A DNA stretch of 64,000 bases from Deltaproteobacteria bacterium (GCA_038133845.1 JAYPUA010000004.1:16971-80970); one strand, 5' to 3'; positions 1,935 through 61,744 are shown, numbered from the stretch's first letter. Made by a program: numbers and translations. The notes: generated from the letters alone by a model not told the origin.

Positions 1935-4277
1935 TTGAACCCTTGTACCATGGAAGAAACTTCGATGACAGAACTCGCCACTTCTCAGACCCCAGTGAAA
2001 TCCAAGGCTGGAGACTCTCTGCGCCGTGTAGAGGACTCGCGCCTGATCGTCGGCCAAGGCCGCTTCACGGACAACCGTCCGGATGCCGGAGAGCTTCACC
2101 TGCACCTGGTACGCTCCTACCTGGCCCATGCGCGTATTGTAAAGGTGGACCTGGACGCTGCCCGGAAGAGTCCGGGGGTCGTTGCGGTCTACACTGCGAA
2201 AGAGATGATCGCCGACGGGATCTCTCCCTTGCCGGCAGTGGAAGGGTTCAAGCGTCCGGATGGCGAGCCGATGGTCCACCCGGACTGGCACGCTCTATCC
2301 GATGGACGCGTTCGCTACGTAGGACATCCGATCGTGGCCATTCTGGCAGAAACCCAGGTTCAGGCTGCCGATGCCGCACAGCTGGTGGAGGTGGAATATG
2401 AAGAGCTTCCTGCCGCCGGGAACCTGGCTGCCGCCAGCGCTCCGGGAGCCCCACTCGTTTGGGAGGGGTTGCCGGACAATGCCGTGGCATACATGGGCTT
2501 TGGAAGTGAAGAGGCTGTGGAGCAGGCCTTTGCCCAGGCACACCAGGTGACCAGACTGGAGTTGACCAACAACCGCCTGGTGGGCAACGCGATGGAACCT
2601 CGGACAGTGATCTGCGAATATGACGCGGAGTCGGGACGCAGGACCATCCGACTGGGACACCAGCATCCCCACGGATTTCTGGCGACCTTGAAAGGCATCT
2701 TCAACGAGGAGCCGGAGCGGTTCCGGGTCATCGTGGAAGACATCGGCGGGGGTTTCGGGGTCAAGCAGAACACCTACGCGGAAGATGTGGTCGCAATCTA
2801 TGCGGCCGGGAAGCTCAAGCGCACGATCCGCTGGCGGGGAAGCCGGACGGAGGACTTTCAGGCCACGGTTCATGGGCGTGATCAGATCAACCGCGCGGAG
2901 TTGGCCTGTGATGCCGAGGGCAAGATTCTGGGCTTGCGGATCCTGACGCTGGGCAACATCGGGGCGTTTCCCACAGGAGCCGGGGTCGCCATTCCGCTGT
3001 TTGTCGGCCCCAAGGTGGCGACCTCGCTCTACCATGTCCCGGCATTCCGCCTCGAGGTTCTGGCCTACGCCTCTCATACCGCTCCGATGGGAGCCTACCG
3101 AGGGGCCGGACGTCCGGAGTCGATCTACCTGATGGAGCGCCTGATGGACCAGGCTGCCCGGGAGTTGGGGATCGACCCGCTGGAGATCCGGCGCAAGAAC
3201 TTCATCCCCAAGGAGTCGATGCCCTATACCAATCCGATGGGAGAAGTGTATGACAGCGGAGACTTCAACACCGTGATGGACCTTTGCCTGAAGCAGGCCG
3301 ATTGGGAGGGTTTTGAGGCACGTCGTGCGGAGTCGGCACAGCGTGGCAAGTTGCGTGGACGCGGGATCTCCTGCTACATCGAGTGGACCGGAGCCGAGTG
3401 GTCGGAACAGGTCACCCTGGTGGCCTCCGGAACAGGCACCTTCACCTGCTACTCCGGGACCCAGGCCATGGGTCAGGGCATCGAGACGGCCTACCTGCAG
3501 CTGCTCTCCGAGTCGATGGACCTCCCGCTGGAGCAACTCCGGGTCATTCAGGGGGATACCGACCAGGTCCTGGGCAAGGGCAGCTATGCATCGCGCTCGC
3601 TCTACATCGGAGGTTCGACCATCCGTGAGGGCTCCCAGAAGTTCATGGAGGCTGCCCGACAGCTTGCCGCCGAAGCGCTGGAGGCTGCTCCGGAAGACCT
3701 GGTCTATGCCGATGGACGATTCGAGGTCGTGGGGACCAACATTGGAGTCGGGCTGTTTGAGCTGGCGGCTCAGCAGCCAGAGCAGAAGATCTCCGTGGTT
3801 TCCAAGACCAAGATCCCCGTGGCCAGTTGGCCCAACGGAGCACAGATCGCCGAGGTGGAGGTTGACCCGGAGACCGGGATGATTCAGATGATGAGTCTGA
3901 ACTCGGTGGACGATGTGGGCAATGCGGTCAACCCGATGCTGGTGGCCGGACAGGTTCACGGCGGGATGGCTCAGTCCGTAGGACAAGCGCTCCTTGAGGA
4001 CACGGTCTACGACGAGAACGGACAGTTCATCAACTCGACCTTTCTGGACTACGCAATGCCTCGTGCGGACACAATGCCTTCGCTGCAGACGAACCTGTTT
4101 GGAGGCGAGCCCTGCCGCACCAACCCGTTGGGATCCAAAGGGGTTGGAGAATTGGGCACCGTTGGAGCGACTCCAGCGGTGGTCAACGCGGTGCTGGACG
4201 CCCTCAAGGAGCGCGGAGTCGAGCACCTGGAGATGCCGTTGACGCCTCAAAGGGTCTGGGCCGCGCTGAACGGCTGA
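1935..4277 (+). CDS. Molybdopterin-binding large subunit of the xanthine dehydrogenase / aerobic CO dehydrogenase family (CoxL-like, form II).
   Basis: The 780-aa product has an N-terminal RVEDSRLIVGQGRFTDN motif and the form-II active-site loop AYRGAGR (not the form-I VAYRCSFR). Alternative starts lie at 1950 and 1965. Confidence 0.8.
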   Translation: MNPCTMEETSMTELATSQTPVKSKAGDSLRRVEDSRLIVGQGRFTDNRPDAGELHLHLVRSYLAHARIVKVDLDAARKSPGVVAVYTAKEMIADGISPLPAVEGFKRPDGEPMVHPDWHALSDGRVRYVGHPIVAILAETQVQAADAAQLVEVEYEELPAAGNLAAASAPGAPLVWEGLPDNAVAYMGFGSEEAVEQAFAQAHQVTRLELTNNRLVGNAMEPRTVICEYDAESGRRTIRLGHQHPHGFLATLKGIFNEEPERFRVIVEDIGGGFGVKQNTYAEDVVAIYAAGKLKRTIRWRGSRTEDFQATVHGRDQINRAELACDAEGKILGLRILTLGNIGAFPTGAGVAIPLFVGPKVATSLYHVPAFRLEVLAYASHTAPMGAYRGAGRPESIYLMERLMDQAARELGIDPLEIRRKNFIPKESMPYTNPMGEVYDSGDFNTVMDLCLKQADWEGFEARRAESAQRGKLRGRGISCYIEWTGAEWSEQVTLVASGTGTFTCYSGTQAMGQGIETAYLQLLSESMDLPLEQLRVIQGDTDQVLGKGSYASRSLYIGGSTIREGSQKFMEAARQLAAEALEAAPEDLVYADGRFEVVGTNIGVGLFELAAQQPEQKISVVSKTKIPVASWPNGAQIAEVEVDPETGMIQMMSLNSVDDVGNAVNPMLVAGQVHGGMAQSVGQALLEDTVYDENGQFINSTFLDYAMPRADTMPSLQTNLFGGEPCRTNPLGSKGVGELGTVGATPAVVNAVLDALKERGVEHLEMPLTPQRVWAALNG

Positions 4278-26577: not shown

Positions 26578-26631
26578 TTCGCTCCGGTTGTTCCGGGGCA
26601 AGGTTTCCAACCCTCGTTGAGAGAGATTGTG

Positions 26632-27609
26632 ATGAAGTCGAAACTGTGGGGACTGCTCCCTTTCCTGCTGCTGTTCATGGCCACCGGAGCTCAGGCCGAG
26701 TTTTTCCAGCAGCCCCTCCTCTCGCCTCTGGAGTTGCACCGCCTCCAAGAGCAGCACCCGGAAGGCATTACGGTGGTGGACATCAGGCCACTGGAGCACA
26801 AGGTCCCCGAGGCGTCCTATACGGCAGGGCACATTCCGGAGTCCGTCTCTTCACCGTACGCAACCTGGCGCGGGCAGCCTGAAAATCCGGGGAAGATGGT
26901 GACTGTGGACAAACTCACCTGGCTGGTTCAGGCGTTGGGTGTGGAGCAGGATACTCCGGTGGTGGTGGTCCACCGGGGGGACTCTCCCAGCGATTTTGGT
27001 GCCGCAGCACGGGTGTACTGGTCGCTCAAGACCGCTGGACTGAGGGAGTTGGCGATTCTGGACGGAGGCTTTCAGGCGTGGCAGCAGGCCGGACTGCCGA
27101 TCTCCACGGAGGCACACACGGCGTTGCCCAGCGACTACGAAGTCCAGTTGAAGACAGCCTGGCTGGCTACCACTGCGGACATTGAGCAGTTGCTCAGTAG
27201 GTCCGAGGTTCAGTTGCTTGATGCGCGTCCGGAGGCTTTTTTTTGGGGAGAAAAATGGCATGGTGCTGCTGCACGTCCGGGAACGATCGCCGGAGCCGAG
27301 TTCTTTGACAACCACCGCTGGTTCCAACCGGAGAGCCCCTTGCTCGAACCCCCGGAGCGGCTGCGCAATTTGGTCCAGGAGCACCAGCTGGGACATTCAG
27401 AGGTGACGGTCTCCTTCTGCAACACAGGACACTGGGCGGCAACCAACTGGTTCGTACTCAGTGAGTTGCTCGGAGTGGAAGGGGTGAAGCTCTATCCGGA
27501 GTCGCTGGTCGAATGGTCCTCTGCCGGGCTCCCCATGGATCACGTCCCGGGAAGCCTGCGCTGGGCCTGGATTTCGACGCGGCAGTGGCTGAACGCTCAG
27601 TTCAACTGA
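26632..27609 (+). CDS. Periplasmic tandem-rhodanese sulfurtransferase.
   Basis: Signal peptide MKSKLWGLLPFLLLFMATGAQA, two rhodanese-like halves and an active-site Cys in CNTGHWAA. Confidence 0.8.
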   Translation: MKSKLWGLLPFLLLFMATGAQAEFFQQPLLSPLELHRLQEQHPEGITVVDIRPLEHKVPEASYTAGHIPESVSSPYATWRGQPENPGKMVTVDKLTWLVQALGVEQDTPVVVVHRGDSPSDFGAAARVYWSLKTAGLRELAILDGGFQAWQQAGLPISTEAHTALPSDYEVQLKTAWLATTADIEQLLSRSEVQLLDARPEAFFWGEKWHGAAARPGTIAGAEFFDNHRWFQPESPLLEPPERLRNLVQEHQLGHSEVTVSFCNTGHWAATNWFVLSELLGVEGVKLYPESLVEWSSAGLPMDHVPGSLRWAWISTRQWLNAQFN

Positions 27610-27611
27610 AG

Positions 27612-28757
27612 ATGACCTCCGTGAGCCTTTCCAGGTCCACCACGCTGCCTCGTGCCGGAAGTCCGGCGCGGAGGCGGGTGCTGCTTTCAGTCGGAGCGAT
27701 CCTGCTGGTGCTCACGCTGGCCATACACGCAGGGGTGAGACAGGGGCTGCTGCTCGCCATCGGCTTGGGGCTGGGAGCTACGCTGGAGGGCCTTCGCTTC
27801 GGGTTTGCCGGGCCGTGGCGCCAGGCGATCCTGAACCAGGATACCCGCGGGCTCAGGGCCCAGCTGCTCTCCATCGCCTTGGCCGCGGTGATGATGTTCC
27901 CCTTGCTGGGACAGGCTTCCGGGGAGTTGATCGGGGCTGCAGCTCCACTGGGGGTTGCAATGGTTCTGGGAGCGTTTGTCTTTGGGGCCGCGATGCAGGT
28001 GGTGCTTGGCTGTGGATCAGGGACGCTGGTCAACGCAGGTAGCGGCAACCTGACGGGGCTCTGGGTGCTCCCATTCTTTGTGGCAGGAAGCTTCCTCGGG
28101 ACCCTGCACCTGCCCGAGTGGAGCTTGTTAGGGAGCCTGCCTCCGGTGGTGATCAGTCATGAGTTGGGCACGGCGGGAGGCCTGATGGTCACTGCAGGTG
28201 GGCTGCTCGGGCTGGTGTTGGTGCTGCGACATCGCGCGGCTCCGGACGAGCAGAGGATCCCGCTACGGCTCTGGAAAGCCGCGGGGCTCCTGGCCGTTCT
28301 TGCCACGCTCAACCTCCTCGTCTCCGGGCAACCTTGGGGAGTCGTCTATGGCCTCGGGCTCTGGGGCGCGAAGCTGGCCCACTGGTCCGGAGTGGAGTTG
28401 AGCGGATTTGCCTTCTGGGATGCTCCCGGAAATGCCGGGCGGCTGGCGGAAAGCCTGCTGCTCGATGTGACCTCCGTAACCAACCTTGGCATCTTGCTCG
28501 GTGCCGGGCTGGCAAATTGCTGGAAGGGGGAGTTTGCGCCTCAGGTCACGCTGACCCCCAGGCTGTGGATTGCCGGCGCTGGAGCTGGGCTTTTGCTGGG
28601 ATATGCCTCTCGGTTGGCCTACGGCTGCAACGTGGGGGCATTTTTCAGCGGGATTGCCTCCGGAAGCCTCCACGGCTGGGTCTGGTTTGCTTCAGCTTTT
28701 GCAGGCTCCTGGGTTGGAGTGCGCCTGCGCAATCGTCTGGTAGGAGAAGTTCCGTGA
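27612..28757 (+). CDS. YeeE/YedE family inner membrane transporter (thiosulfate or selenium importer-like).
   Basis: The two duplicated signature Cys motifs VVLGCGSGTLVNAGSGN and RLAYGCNVGAFFSGIASGS. The start is 3 nt after the rhodanese stop. Confidence 0.8.
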   Translation: MTSVSLSRSTTLPRAGSPARRRVLLSVGAILLVLTLAIHAGVRQGLLLAIGLGLGATLEGLRFGFAGPWRQAILNQDTRGLRAQLLSIALAAVMMFPLLGQASGELIGAAAPLGVAMVLGAFVFGAAMQVVLGCGSGTLVNAGSGNLTGLWVLPFFVAGSFLGTLHLPEWSLLGSLPPVVISHELGTAGGLMVTAGGLLGLVLVLRHRAAPDEQRIPLRLWKAAGLLAVLATLNLLVSGQPWGVVYGLGLWGAKLAHWSGVELSGFAFWDAPGNAGRLAESLLLDVTSVTNLGILLGAGLANCWKGEFAPQVTLTPRLWIAGAGAGLLLGYASRLAYGCNVGAFFSGIASGSLHGWVWFASAFAGSWVGVRLRNRLVGEVP

Positions 28758-55185: not shown

Positions 55186-55692
55186 ATGTCCTCTCACATT
55201 GCTGTATACCCCATCAGTTCCAATCCTCCCACATTCGGGCATGCGGACATCCTGACCCGTGCAGCCAACCACTTTGAGCAGGTTTACTGGGCTGCCGCGA
55301 TCAACCCTGCCAAGTCATACATGTTCACGCAGGAGGAGCGCATGCGGATGATGCAGGAGTATGTGGACCATTTTCAGCTCACCAACGTCACGGTGGATGC
55401 CTACATCGGCGCCACCATTCGCTATGTTCAGAGCAAGGGCTCTCGGGTCATCGTCAAGGGGCTGCGCAGCACCGACGACTTCCATCCGGAGCAGCAGCAG
55501 GCCTTGGGCAACGCGATGCTGGCCCCGGATGTGGAGACCTTCTGTCTCTTTGGACGGCCGGAGCGTTTCCAGATCAGCTCCTCGCTGGTTCGCGAGCTGG
55601 CGTTGCTTGGGGAAAGCATCGAGGCCTACGTGCTTCCCAGCGTGGCCCGCATGGTTGAAGACGCAGTACAACGATTTCAGGCACAGCAATGA
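55186..55692 (+). CDS. coaD: Phosphopantetheine adenylyltransferase.
   Basis: VYPISSNPPTFGHADILTRA (T/HxGH motif), VKGLRSTDDF and ISSSLVRE match CoaD. Confidence 0.85.
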   Translation: MSSHIAVYPISSNPPTFGHADILTRAANHFEQVYWAAAINPAKSYMFTQEERMRMMQEYVDHFQLTNVTVDAYIGATIRYVQSKGSRVIVKGLRSTDDFHPEQQQALGNAMLAPDVETFCLFGRPERFQISSSLVRELALLGESIEAYVLPSVARMVEDAVQRFQAQQ

Positions 55693-56450
55693 TCGTCTCT
55701 CTCTCGGCAATCGCTTCCCAGGACTCCGCTCTGCGCCAAAAGCGTGAGCAGTGGCTGATTGTTCTCTGGGGGCTGGTTCTGGCAATCAGCCTGCTGACGG
55801 CAGACTTTCAGGACCCGACCCTCTTTCATCCGGCTGCTCCGGTCGAAGGAATCTCCAACGGGCTGGGCGTAATTGGAGCGCTGCTTGGTGGAACTCTGCT
55901 GGAGTGGTTTGGAGCCTCGGCCTTGATGATGGGCTGGCTGCTGTGGCGGCTTCCCTTCACCCCAAGGCTGCTGCTGGAAGATCGCCCCCGGAGTTCCTGG
56001 TTCAGTCGACTTCTGCATGCTCTGCTGGCCGCCAGCTCTCTCAGCCTGCTGCACGGACTCTTTGGCACCGGACGCTCCCTGGGCGTAAGCCTGTTCTGGC
56101 ATGAAGGCTACCTGGGACAGGTCGGGCGTGCCTGGATTCTGGAGGCGGAGTGGCCGTGGCTGCACCTTGCGGGACTCGTCTCGGTTGCCCTGTGGAGCCT
56201 GATCCGGCTCACCCCCTGCTTTCAACTGAACCTGCCTTGGGCTGCGTGGTTCGCCCATTGGAGCAACAAGGCCTCTGCCTGGTCTGCTGCAAGCTCAACT
56301 CCGCGTTCTCCGCTTTTCCAGACTGTCCCTCGACGGAGGGTGGTCTCTACCCAGGAAGGGGCTGCCGGAGCTGCGCAGATGCTCAGCAGCTATGCGGCCG
56401 CTCCCCTTCCTCAATCCCTTTCTTCATCAAGCCATGAAACTCACGATTGA
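55689..56450 (+). CDS. Membrane protein consisting only of an FtsK-N-terminal-like 4TM domain. No translocase motor.
   Basis: DFQDPTLF...ISNGLGVIGALLGGTLLEWFGASAL parallels FtsK NPSDPSW...NLGGMPGAWLADTLFFIFG. The ATG overlaps the coaD stop. Confidence 0.5.
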   Translation: MIVSLSAIASQDSALRQKREQWLIVLWGLVLAISLLTADFQDPTLFHPAAPVEGISNGLGVIGALLGGTLLEWFGASALMMGWLLWRLPFTPRLLLEDRPRSSWFSRLLHALLAASSLSLLHGLFGTGRSLGVSLFWHEGYLGQVGRAWILEAEWPWLHLAGLVSVALWSLIRLTPCFQLNLPWAAWFAHWSNKASAWSAASSTPRSPLFQTVPRRRVVSTQEGAAGAAQMLSSYAAAPLPQSLSSSSHETHD

Positions 56451-56652
56451 ATACTGCACGATGTGAAGCTACCTGCCCCGTGCGACCAGTTTGGCCGCAG
56501 AGATCCAGCAGGAACTTGGCGTGGAAACCCAGCTGATCCCCAGCGACAGAGGTGCGTTTGAGGTCAAGAACGAGGGGACGCTGGTGTTTTCAAAACATCA
56601 GCAAGGAAGATTCCCGGAGCCGGGAGAAGTGGTGAGGCTGCTTCGGAAGTGA
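56434..56652 (+). CDS. SelW/Rdx-family selenoprotein with an in-frame TGA (Sec) at 56464-56466 inside a CTMU (CxxU) motif.
   Basis: Read-through translation: MKLTIEYCTM-U-SYLPRATSLAAEIQQELGVETQLIPSDRGAFEVKNEGTLVFSKHQQGRFPEPGEVVRLLRK, 72 aa. This matches the bacterial SelW-like pattern IEYCTxU...GGVFEV...DG.LVFSK...GRFPE. selB lies about 3 kb away. The gene is absent from the ORF track because of the TGA. Confidence 0.7.
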
Positions 56653-56695
56653 ACTCGGTGAACTCAAGGGGCTTGCGCCCCTTGCAATCCCATGC

Positions 56696-56914
56696 TTAGA
56701 AGTCGGCTTTGAGCGCGGCGCGGATTTCGCGCTTGATGTCCTTGTTGCGCTGCTTCTCTGCGTTCTCGCGCTTGAGTCGCTTGGCGACGGAAGGCTTGAC
56801 GTAGAACTTGCGCTTCTTGATCTCCTTGAACAGCCCCTCACGGATCAGGGTGCGCTTGAGTTGCATCATCGACTTGGACAGGTTGCCATCTCGGACTTCA
56901 ATGGTGATTGCCAT
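56696..56914 (-). CDS. rpsU: 30S ribosomal protein S21.
   Basis: 72-aa product MAITIEVRDGNLSKSMMQLKRTLIREGLFKEIKKRKFYVKPSVAKRLKRENAEKQ... Confidence 0.9.
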   Translation of the reverse strand: MAITIEVRDGNLSKSMMQLKRTLIREGLFKEIKKRKFYVKPSVAKRLKRENAEKQRNKDIKREIRAALKADF

Positions 56915-59800: not shown

Positions 59801-61744
59801 TCATCCATCATGCAAAGTGGGCTCAGCGTTCAGCATTCCGGCGGTGCGCTGGTTCTCATGCCGAACGGTGAGGCGTTGAAGATCAAAGTATTCTAACAAC
59901 TCCACGGCATGCTTGCGAGAAATCCCGAGCAGGTCCTTGAACTCGATCACGCTCAAGGTCTGCGCCCGGGAGAAGTGCTCTCGCAAATGTTGGGTAATCT
60001 GCTCCAGAACCTCCGGGAGGTAGAACAGATCCTCTGCAATCCGGATCAACCGGCGGTGATGCGATCCGTGCTTGAGCAGCGCGACCCCAGCTTTTTCATC
60101 CAGCTCAAGGGCCTCCAGCAGGTGTGTCCGTCGCAGCGGCTGAAAGCCCCCCTGCCGGAGCAGCTCCTCACAGCGCGAAAGCAGGGCCTCCTGGTCCGTT
60201 CCAGTCTCTGGCTGATGCTCCGGGTCGGCATAGGTCTGGTCTTCGTTGCGGAGCAGCGTTCCTTCTCGCACAAGCAACTTCAGCAACGCGTCCACTCGGG
60301 ATTCCTGCTGCAGCACCGAGGCCAGCTTCCCGGCAAGTTCCGGACGGGTCATGCCCGCGCGTTCCGGAAAGCGAGCGTGGTGGCCCTGGACAATGCGCAG
60401 CACGTAATGCCCCAGCCGGCGCAGGTGCTCCGGATGCCACCAGCGCTGTTCCTGAGCGTCCAGACACACGAGGCGCTGCTTGCTTTGAAGCCACTGAAGC
60501 AGCTTCTCCGCGCGCTTGATGGAGAGTCCCGACCGAGCCGCCAGCTCTTCCTGAGCCACCCCACGCATCGCCTGCAGGAAGACCGTATCCTCCACACGCT
60601 GCGCCTCGTCCTCTCCCCGGAGGCCTTCCAGACGCTGTGCCAGTTCGTGCATGACCCGTCGTGACTTTGCGGGTGCCGGATCCAGCACCCGCCCGCCTCC
60701 AATGGTCTGGACCGGCGAGTAGCTCCGCACAATGAAGCGATCCCCAAAGCGGCTGCTCACCGGTGCTTCCAGCCGGAGCTGACAGAGCCCCTGCGCCCCT
60801 GGAGTCAGCTGAGGCTGCTCGAGCAGGACGACCCGCCCAAGAACCTCTCGGGTTCCCAGATAGACCCGGACGCGCTGTCGGGTTTGCAGCGGCCGGGCCG
60901 CGTCTTCGAGCACCTGCAGTTCAACGTTGAGCATGAAGCTGTTCAGCAGCGATCCGGGAAGCGCCAGCTGGTCGCCGCGCTGAATTTCCTTGTGGTGCAA
61001 GGTGCTGAGGTTGAGCGCAGTCCGCTGCCCGGCAACCACCTTTGCCGCGGCCACTCCGTGAACCTGCATCCCGCGAATACGGGCCAAACGCTGCTGCGGA
61101 TACTGCATCAACTCCTCATCAATCCGGAGAGTCCCAGCGCCTGCGGTCCCGGTGACCACGGTTCCAAATCCCTTTGCCGCAAACGAGCGGTCCACGGCGA
61201 GGCGAAAGGGGGCCTCCGGATGCCGAGGCTGGGGCGCAAGTTGGAACAGGGCCTCGCGCAGCTCAGGCAGTCCCTGTCCACTGAGCGCGGAGACGTGATG
61301 AACCGGAGCCTCCCGGAGGAAAGTCTCCTGCACCAACTCACGGACCTCCTCGGCACAGAGTTCGACCAGGTCCGGATCCTCCACCTTGTCGATGCGGGTC
61401 AGCACAATCAACCCAGTTTGAATCCCGAGGAGGTTGCAGATTGCCAGGTGCTCCCGGGTTTGCGGCATCACCCCTTCATCGGCTGCGACAACGAGCAGCA
61501 CCGCATCCAGCCCTGAAGCTCCGGCGAGCATGTTGTGCACGAAGCGCTCATGTCCCGGAACATCGACAAAGGCCAGGGTGTTTCCCCCCTCGTCCTGCAG
61601 GTGAGCAAAGCCGAGATCAATGGTGATCCCGCGGTTCTTCTCTTCCTGGAAGCGGTCCGGATCCACTCCCGTCAAGGCCTTGACGAGCGTGCTTTTCCCG
61701 TGATCGATGTGCCCGCTGGTTCCCAGAACGAGGTGGCGTGCCAA
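59801..61744 (-). CDS. selB: Selenocysteine-specific translation elongation factor.
   Basis: N-terminal GTPase [16 protein letters not shown]...DVPGHERF...TRIDKV, followed by about 300 aa of winged-helix SECIS-binding region; 647 aa in total. Confidence 0.85.

Follow-up and report, generated by a model that had tools for sequence, protein, structure and literature searches.

The window analyzed here, a stretch of 64,000 nucleotides of DNA, carries on its plus strand a small gene for a SelW-like protein of the Rdx family with an in-frame UGA codon, an RNA hairpin within the coding sequence downstream of that codon, and, 3.1 kb from selW, a gene for the selenocysteine (Sec)-specific elongation factor SelB (Table 1). 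The genes of the locus are, in order, mutS, coaD, one for a 4TM membrane protein, selW, the convergent rpsU, rraA, one for an LppC/ANF-receptor-like protein, selB and gspE/pilB. Two metagenome-assembled genomes (MAGs), L011 and L012, the second of which is labelled 'Deltaproteobacteria bacterium', preserve this arrangement from mutS to selB.

Downstream of selW, a perfect 7-bp inverted repeat begins 14 nt past the stop codon. A terminator scan did not flag this repeat because it has no T-run, and it is a possible bidirectional terminator. The convergent rpsU gene, encoding ribosomal protein S21, is 98.6% identical in L011 and L012, as against 57-78% for its neighbors; the ORF list stretches it to a 216-residue ORF with a TTG start, which is certainly too long.

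Elsewhere in the window, a gene for a rhodanese-domain protein adjoins one for a YeeE/YedE-type 'Sulf_transp' membrane protein, the latter scoring only 86 bits against the selenium-metabolism YedE/FdhT model (cutoff 350). The two may form a sulfur- or selenium-handling pair; since their ORFs overlap by about 100 nt, one of the two starts is probably mis-assigned. Also encoded in the window is the large subunit of a molybdopterin oxidoreductase (glyceraldehyde dehydrogenase/aerobic CODH/xanthine dehydrogenase type). It falls below all equivalog cutoffs and weakly matches TIGR03311 and TIGR03313, two models of selenium-dependent molybdenum hydroxylases.

Table 1. Features of the window, with positions counted from its first nucleotide
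Feature	Position	Strand	Evidence or remark
Full SelW-like (Rdx family) selenoprotein CDS, predicted	56434..56652	+	72 codons including Sec, plus stop codon
Redox motif C-T-M-U (TGC ACG ATG TGA)	56455..56466	+	Aligned to CTQC of PDB 2fa8/3dex
In-frame UGA, predicted to be read as selenocysteine	56464..56466	+	TGA in 79/80 homologous loci (best 80 of 247 relatives)
Bacterial SECIS core hairpin, UGCGACCA-GUU-UGGCCGCA	56481..56499	+	Folds, covariation, synonymous-site freeze
Shortened 53-residue ORF (TTG start), called instead of the full gene	56491..56652	+	ORF list; identical to P0001
GC-rich inverted repeat AAGGGGC-TTGC-GCCCCTT	56666..56683		Between convergent selW and rpsU
rpsU, ribosomal protein S21	56696..56914	-	
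selB, selenocysteine-specific elongation factor	59801..61744	-	TIGR00475, 365 bits (cutoff 242)
Molybdopterin oxidoreductase large subunit	1935..4277	+	
Rhodanese-domain protein	26617..27609	+	PF00581, 76 bits
YeeE/YedE-type 'Sulf_transp' membrane protein	27513..28757	+	PF04143, 154 bits

The UGA codon lies in frame within a SelW-like coding sequence

Reading through the UGA, the plus strand encodes a protein of 72 residues, MKLTIEYCTM[U]SYLPRATSLAAEIQQELGVETQLIPSDRGAFEVKNEGTLVFSKHQQGRFPEPGEVVRLLRK, whose gene opens with the codons ATG AAA CTC ACG ATT GAA TAC TGC ACG ATG TGA AGC (ATG at 56434, the Cys codon TGC at 56455-57, the in-frame TGA at 56464-66) and closes with a terminal TGA at 56650-52. 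The coordinates, the C-T-M-[TGA] motif and the 72-residue length given in the original prediction, which had been made from the DNA sequence of the window, were all reproduced by this translation. Its statement that no ORF covers the interval requires correction, as the ORF list holds a 53-residue ORF that starts with TTG in the same frame and spans the C-terminal 74% of the gene, and selW shares its first 17 nt with the end of an upstream ORF of 253 residues (55689-56450) that is read in a different frame. Conservation of the upstream membrane protein is confined to residues 20-188, and the last ~65 codons of its ORF in the window may therefore be a lineage-specific extension.

An earlier start, the ATG at 56392, was ruled out, as all homologues begin at M-K/R-[ILV] and many have a nearby upstream in-frame stop. 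When the start regions were compared (window 56400-56450; positions 3960-4003 in both L011 and L012), no Shine-Dalgarno sequence was found before the window ATG; in L011 and L012, AAGGAG precedes the start of the orthologue by 6-9 nt. Translational coupling to the upstream ORF is a plausible route of initiation for the window selW.

The read-through product belongs to the SelW/Rdx family

With Cys placed at the TGA, the read-through translation matched the Rdx profile of Pfam (PF10262) at 76.3 bits (cutoff 22.6; E=2e-21), with residues 2-72 aligned to positions 1-74 of the 74-position profile. The score was 69.2 bits (E=3.5e-19) with X at the UGA position, Cys thus raising it by 7 bits, and 45.2 bits for the 53-residue fragment alone, the 19 residues ahead of the TTG start that gene callers drop being worth 24 bits. 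The protein also exceeded the cutoffs of the NCBIfam models TIGR02174 'CXXU_selWTH' (59.9 bits; cutoff 34.2) and NF041051, an equivalog for the 'SelT/SelW/SelH family (seleno)protein' (92.3 bits; cutoff 88; E=1.6e-26), and it aligned over its full length with the solved structures of Atu0228 (2fa8; E=9e-11) and SAV_2001 (3dex; E=2e-9). In these alignments, the second Cys of the I-x-Y-C-T-Q-C segment of both structures falls on the UGA of the window.

Membership of the SelW/Rdx family, as originally proposed, is thus borne out by all three profiles and by the PDB alignments. The check suggested at the time, an alignment of the read-through product to PF10262, returned clear similarity, and the placement of the UGA at the redox position of the CxxU motif agrees both with the structures and with the codon usage of the homologues described below. 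Judging from its full-length sequence homology to these solved structures, the window SelW is predicted to adopt a thioredoxin-like fold.

The UGA codon is conserved among homologues and truncates their gene calls

When one genome per species was scanned for the pattern, 247 relatives were confirmed by tblastn; the loci L011-L090 are the best 80 of these. Among these best 80 of 247, the tblastn match begins at query residues 1-5, and the codon aligned to the UGA of the window is TGA in 79 loci and TGC in one (L074). Their translations read M-x-[ILV]-x-I-x-Y-C-x-x-* and then N-Y-x-P-R-A-A-G-L-A-A-E-L, so that the frame is conserved on both sides of the UGA, in the ten upstream codons as well as in the C-terminal blocks. 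Relatives with a plain stop and a product cut off after 10 residues, which the original prediction had named as evidence against itself, were absent from this set, no member of which ends there while lacking a conserved frame downstream. The record titles of the homologues name Acidobacteriota (Thermoanaerobaculia, Holophagae and Terriglobia), Planctomycetota, Eisenbacteria, Krumholzibacteriota and Binatia, and further Myxococcales, 'Deltaproteobacteria', Desulfomonilaceae, Deinococcus, Armatimonadetes, Dehalococcoidia and Chitinispirillaceae.

A protein search returned 13 close homologues, all of them mis-called in the databases. Twelve begin past the UGA, at (M/L)PRATSLAA or later, right after the CxxU motif. 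The sole full-length entry, P0002, shows Trp at the aligned position; the codon in its DNA is TGA, and the ENA gene model used a Mycoplasma-type code (code 4). The mis-called set includes NCBI entries named 'SelT/SelW/SelH family protein' and a fragment of 43 residues (P0006), and the loci concerned are P0002-P0013, L012 (GenBank contig JAYOTF010000007.1) and L091 (967-1206). A fragment identical to the 53-residue ORF of the window (P0001) occurs on 14 JGI metagenome contigs, where it is named 'selT/selW/selH-like putative selenoprotein'. The original description of the gene as unannotated consequently holds for the full gene with its active-site half, which is uncalled, and fails for the 53-residue fragment, which JGI already names a putative selenoprotein. 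That gene callers truncate selW in this manner is attributable to the encoding of its selenocysteine by an in-frame UGA.

A covarying hairpin follows the UGA codon

Downstream of the UGA, the window RNA folds into a hairpin of 7 pairs (3 + 4) with one A.C mismatch (56485/56495) and an apical loop at 56489-56491. The hairpin of the original prediction, GCGACC-AGUUU-GGCCGC, maps to 56482-56498, and an additional U-A pair extends it to 56481-56499. We compared this element with the published model of the bacterial SECIS (PMC13188914, Fig. 2), which describes a loop of 3-9 nt, usually with G[G/U] in the first two positions, a spacing of 16-37 nt from the UGA, an upper stem of 4-16 bp and a minimum free energy (MFE) of -7.5 kcal/mol or lower. 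The apical loop GUU (or A-GUU-U, following the pattern N1-G-U-N-N2) agrees with the model in its length and in its G, and the spacing between UGA and loop, 22 nt (56467-56488), lies within the published range. The upper stem, with 7 pairs and one mismatch, and the free energy of the core, -6.4 kcal/mol, are marginal; the core alone reaches -7.5 kcal/mol or lower in 71 of 81 sequences. The comparison with bacterial SECIS models that had been proposed as a check therefore came out in favor of loop, G and spacing, with a marginal stem and MFE and no match in Rfam.

Folding of a 55-nt segment gave -14.3 kcal/mol, a value that depends on a lower helix (CCUGC/GCAGG). This helix was rejected and left out of the element, as family-wide it does not outperform controls with shuffled flanks (5.3 enclosing pairs versus 6.1, 81 sequences). 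Rfam searches, at gathering thresholds for the whole window and at permissive E-values for 56380-56700, returned nothing relevant, and there is no curated model. Single-sequence folding against dinucleotide shuffles revealed no excess stability (z=0.17 and -0.01), and the case for the hairpin is hence a comparative one.

For the comparative analysis, we used a gap-free alignment of 81 sequences, in which the helix comprises columns 18-24 paired with columns 30-36. Across this alignment, 88.5% of the helix cells are paired, compared to 17-58% after displacement of the 3' partner by 1-3 columns. Changes on both sides were detected in 5 of the 7 pairs, amounting to 36 such cells versus 7.8 +/- 2.4 in shuffles, and the covariation score was 0.209, compared to 0.059 in shuffles and 0.004-0.077 in the slid controls; none of 500 shuffles reached any of the observed covariation measures. 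Several compensatory changes alter the protein, namely GCC-ACC...GUG-GCC (Thr/Val, L014), GCU-UCC...GAA-GC (Ser/Glu, L038 and L058) and GCC-GAC...UCG-GU (Asp/Ser, L087), as expected if the pairing, beyond the peptide, is under selection. Most of the 81 sequences have GGUCU (46), GUU (15), GUC (12) or GGGCU (4) as the apical loop, all but one (80/81) carry G in its first two positions, and the offset of the hairpin from the UGA is the same in essentially all homologues examined.

The hairpin of the window also bears signs of constraint at short evolutionary range. Its 19 nt are identical in the window, L011 and L012, even though the neighboring proteins are only 57-78% identical, and synonymous differences among the three are absent from codons 16-22 (0/7) while affecting 28 of the 42 other amino-acid-conserved codons (Fisher p=0.0014). 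The A.C mismatch is common to the window, L011, L012 and some Binatia, and the equivalent pair is unpaired in 15 of 78 distinct sequences, indicating that the mismatch is tolerated elsewhere. A SECIS-like hairpin close to the UGA, as originally suggested, is thus upheld by its fold and by covariation in 81 sequences. The only Cys (TGC) form among the best 80 loci, L074 (4028-4075), has a partly degraded hairpin with 4 pairs and a 7-nt loop. This remnant looks like a fossil SECIS left after replacement of Sec by Cys, and fits the Sec-to-Cys conversion described in PMC1794560.

Decoding of the UGA codon

The selB gene that had been noted near the locus was verified by its match to TIGR00475, and lies on the minus strand. 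It is complete, its product comprising the Pfam domains GTP_EFTU, Beta-barrel_SelB, SelB-wing_2 and SelB-wing_3, of which the wings constitute the mRNA-binding end; an exact look-up of the window SelB sequence returned no record. With ARAGORN, the 64-kb window yielded no tRNA of any kind, tRNA-Sec included, and neither selA nor selD was detected in it (NCBIfam on selected ORFs, including 37 further ones; JGI Pfam labels for 44-52 kb). To our knowledge, SelB has no role besides Sec insertion; given an intact selB, we assume that the remaining Sec pathway is in place, with selA, selD and selC presumably located elsewhere in the genome.

We conclude with high confidence that the plus-strand interval 56434-56652 is a genuine and functional gene for a SelW/Rdx selenoprotein with the active site Cys8-Thr-Met-Sec11. 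A decaying or truncated gene, in which the UGA terminates translation to leave a 10-residue peptide, or in which the TTG at 56491 starts a 53-residue fragment devoid of the redox motif, would be in keeping with the product that gene callers report, which is exactly this fragment, with the missing Shine-Dalgarno sequence before the ATG at 56434, with a hairpin core weaker than in most homologues, and with a window in which the rest of the Sec machinery is not seen. We nevertheless consider it very improbable. All 10 conspecific metagenome contigs retain both the TGA and the hairpin, and within the ORF they differ only at 56541 (CCC to CCA) and 56638 (CTG to TTG), both synonymous changes, which argues against a decaying pseudogene. 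Furthermore, the TGA is shared by 79 of the best 80 of 247 homologues together with ten upstream codons conserved in frame, the 19 residues ahead of the TTG contribute to the Pfam score, the hairpin displays covariation and, within the lineage of the window, no synonymous change, and selB is intact.

Less probable still is decoding of the UGA as Trp, Gly or Cys, by reassignment of the code or near-cognate suppression and without selenium. The translation of P0002 with Trp at this codon would point in this direction, but it is an artefact of the Mycoplasma-type code applied to a TGA codon. Among the ordinary stops of the window, moreover, TGA is the most frequent, ending 14 of 22 confident genes (including mutS, coaD, rraA, selB and gspE); being a normal stop here, it has not been reassigned, and any reading of the selW UGA as Sec must be local. 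In addition, the site is that of the catalytic Cys/Sec of the family, and a SECIS-type hairpin and selB are present alongside. Finally, a chance ORF that is no gene at all, for which nothing speaks except the short length, is refuted by the Pfam and NCBIfam E-values, by the 247 tblastn-confirmed relatives and by a place between the membrane-protein gene and rpsU that is kept in L011 and L012, and its probability is negligible.

Proposed mechanism of Sec insertion and function

For the selenoprotein reading, we infer Sec insertion itself, the mode of initiation and activity on a redox substrate from the well-studied bacterial Sec pathway, on which the following mechanism is modelled. Translation of selW would initiate at the ATG (56434) and, with the ribosome at the UGA (56464-66), the C-terminal winged-helix domains of SelB would bind the G-U-containing apical loop of the hairpin at 56481-56499. 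SelB-GTP would then bring Sec-tRNA(Sec) to the A site, such that selenocysteine is inserted in place of termination and elongation proceeds to the TGA at 56650, completing the 72-residue protein. The product would be a small thiol/selenol oxidoreductase with the Cys8/Sec11 pair at the start of its first helix, and this pair would be expected to alternate between the selenol/thiol and the selenenylsulfide states, a Cys-Sec cycle that has been proposed for SelW-like proteins (PMC1088965).

The hairpin might conceivably act beyond recoding, as a SelB-titrating or selenium-sensing element that ties SelW expression to SelB and to the selenium supply. This reading, which includes the supposition that the window selW lost its Shine-Dalgarno sequence, takes its context from the fixed selW-selB neighborhood, from the frozen, sub-optimal hairpin of the window, L011 and L012 with its conserved A.C mismatch, and from the overlap of the window selW with the upstream ORF, and we regard it as a speculative and very unlikely addition.

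Implications for selenoprotein annotation

The chief value of the window selW lies in annotation, as the active-site half of the gene is absent from the public calls for this organism and for 13 close homologues. It follows that automated pipelines would under-count the use of Sec in uncultured lineages. The difficulty of recognizing Sec-encoding UGA codons has been discussed (PMC12013277), and truncation is a known weakness of gene callers. The subfamily defined by GRFPEPGEV is nearly always of the Sec type (79/80 among the best 80 of 247), with a fixed hairpin offset, and should therefore make a handy marker of Sec decoding in MAGs. The locus also shows clearly how a hairpin in the RNA and a helix in the protein (P-R-A-A-G-L-A-A-E) have evolved in concert. 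The understanding of selenoprotein biology is left unchanged by the window selW.

Comparison with known systems

The eukaryotic members of the SelW/Rdx family (SelW, SelT, SelH, SelV and Rdx12) belong to the same Pfam family as the window protein (PF10262) and have the CxxU motif in the same position. The eukaryotic SECIS is a kink-turn element located in the 3' UTR and read by SBP2 and eEFSec. In contrast, the SECIS of the window is a short hairpin within the coding region, predicted to be read directly by SelB. In this respect it resembles the SECIS elements of E. coli fdhF and fdnG and the bSECISearch consensus (PMC13188914), likewise hairpins 3' of the UGA, with an apical G-U and the loop 16-37 nt away, although the window sequence is unrelated to the fdhF SECIS, its core is short (7 bp with a mismatch) and it has no Rfam model.

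The solved structures of Cys-containing Rdx proteins (2fa8 Atu0228, 3dex SAV_2001, 2obk, 2oka, 2p0g and 2ojl) share with the window protein the I-x-Y-C-T-x-[C/U] motif and the L-R-A helix. They differ from it in having CxxC, about 105 residues with extra termini, and G-[FG]-P-x-P, whereas the window protein is a minimal Sec form of 72 residues with GRFPEPGE at the corresponding site.

Bacterial SelW-like selenoproteins with a CxxU motif have been described since 2004-2005. They form one of the most common bacterial selenoprotein families known (PMC1088965, PMC1794560). In the Sargasso Sea data they were the most abundant selenoprotein family, with 48 Sec and 7 Cys forms (PMC1088965), and the selenoproteomes of Geobacter, Desulfotalea, Symbiobacterium and others include them as well. 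Cys homologues are few or none in Sec-decoding organisms, and their rarity led the authors to propose Sec as the ancestral state (PMC1794560). The bacterial SelW-like proteins of Zhang and Gladyshev (PMC1088965, PMC1794560; TIGR02174, NF041051) have the same ~70-80 residues as the window protein, the same N-terminal CxxU after the first strand, and a SECIS directly 3' of the UGA whose small apical loop contains a G, and their Sec forms outnumber Cys forms, as they do here (79 versus 1 among the best 80 of 247). The window selW is accordingly a member of this known family, from which nothing structural sets it apart, and it differs only in a slightly weaker hairpin, a missing Shine-Dalgarno sequence and the proximity of selB, 3.1 kb away.
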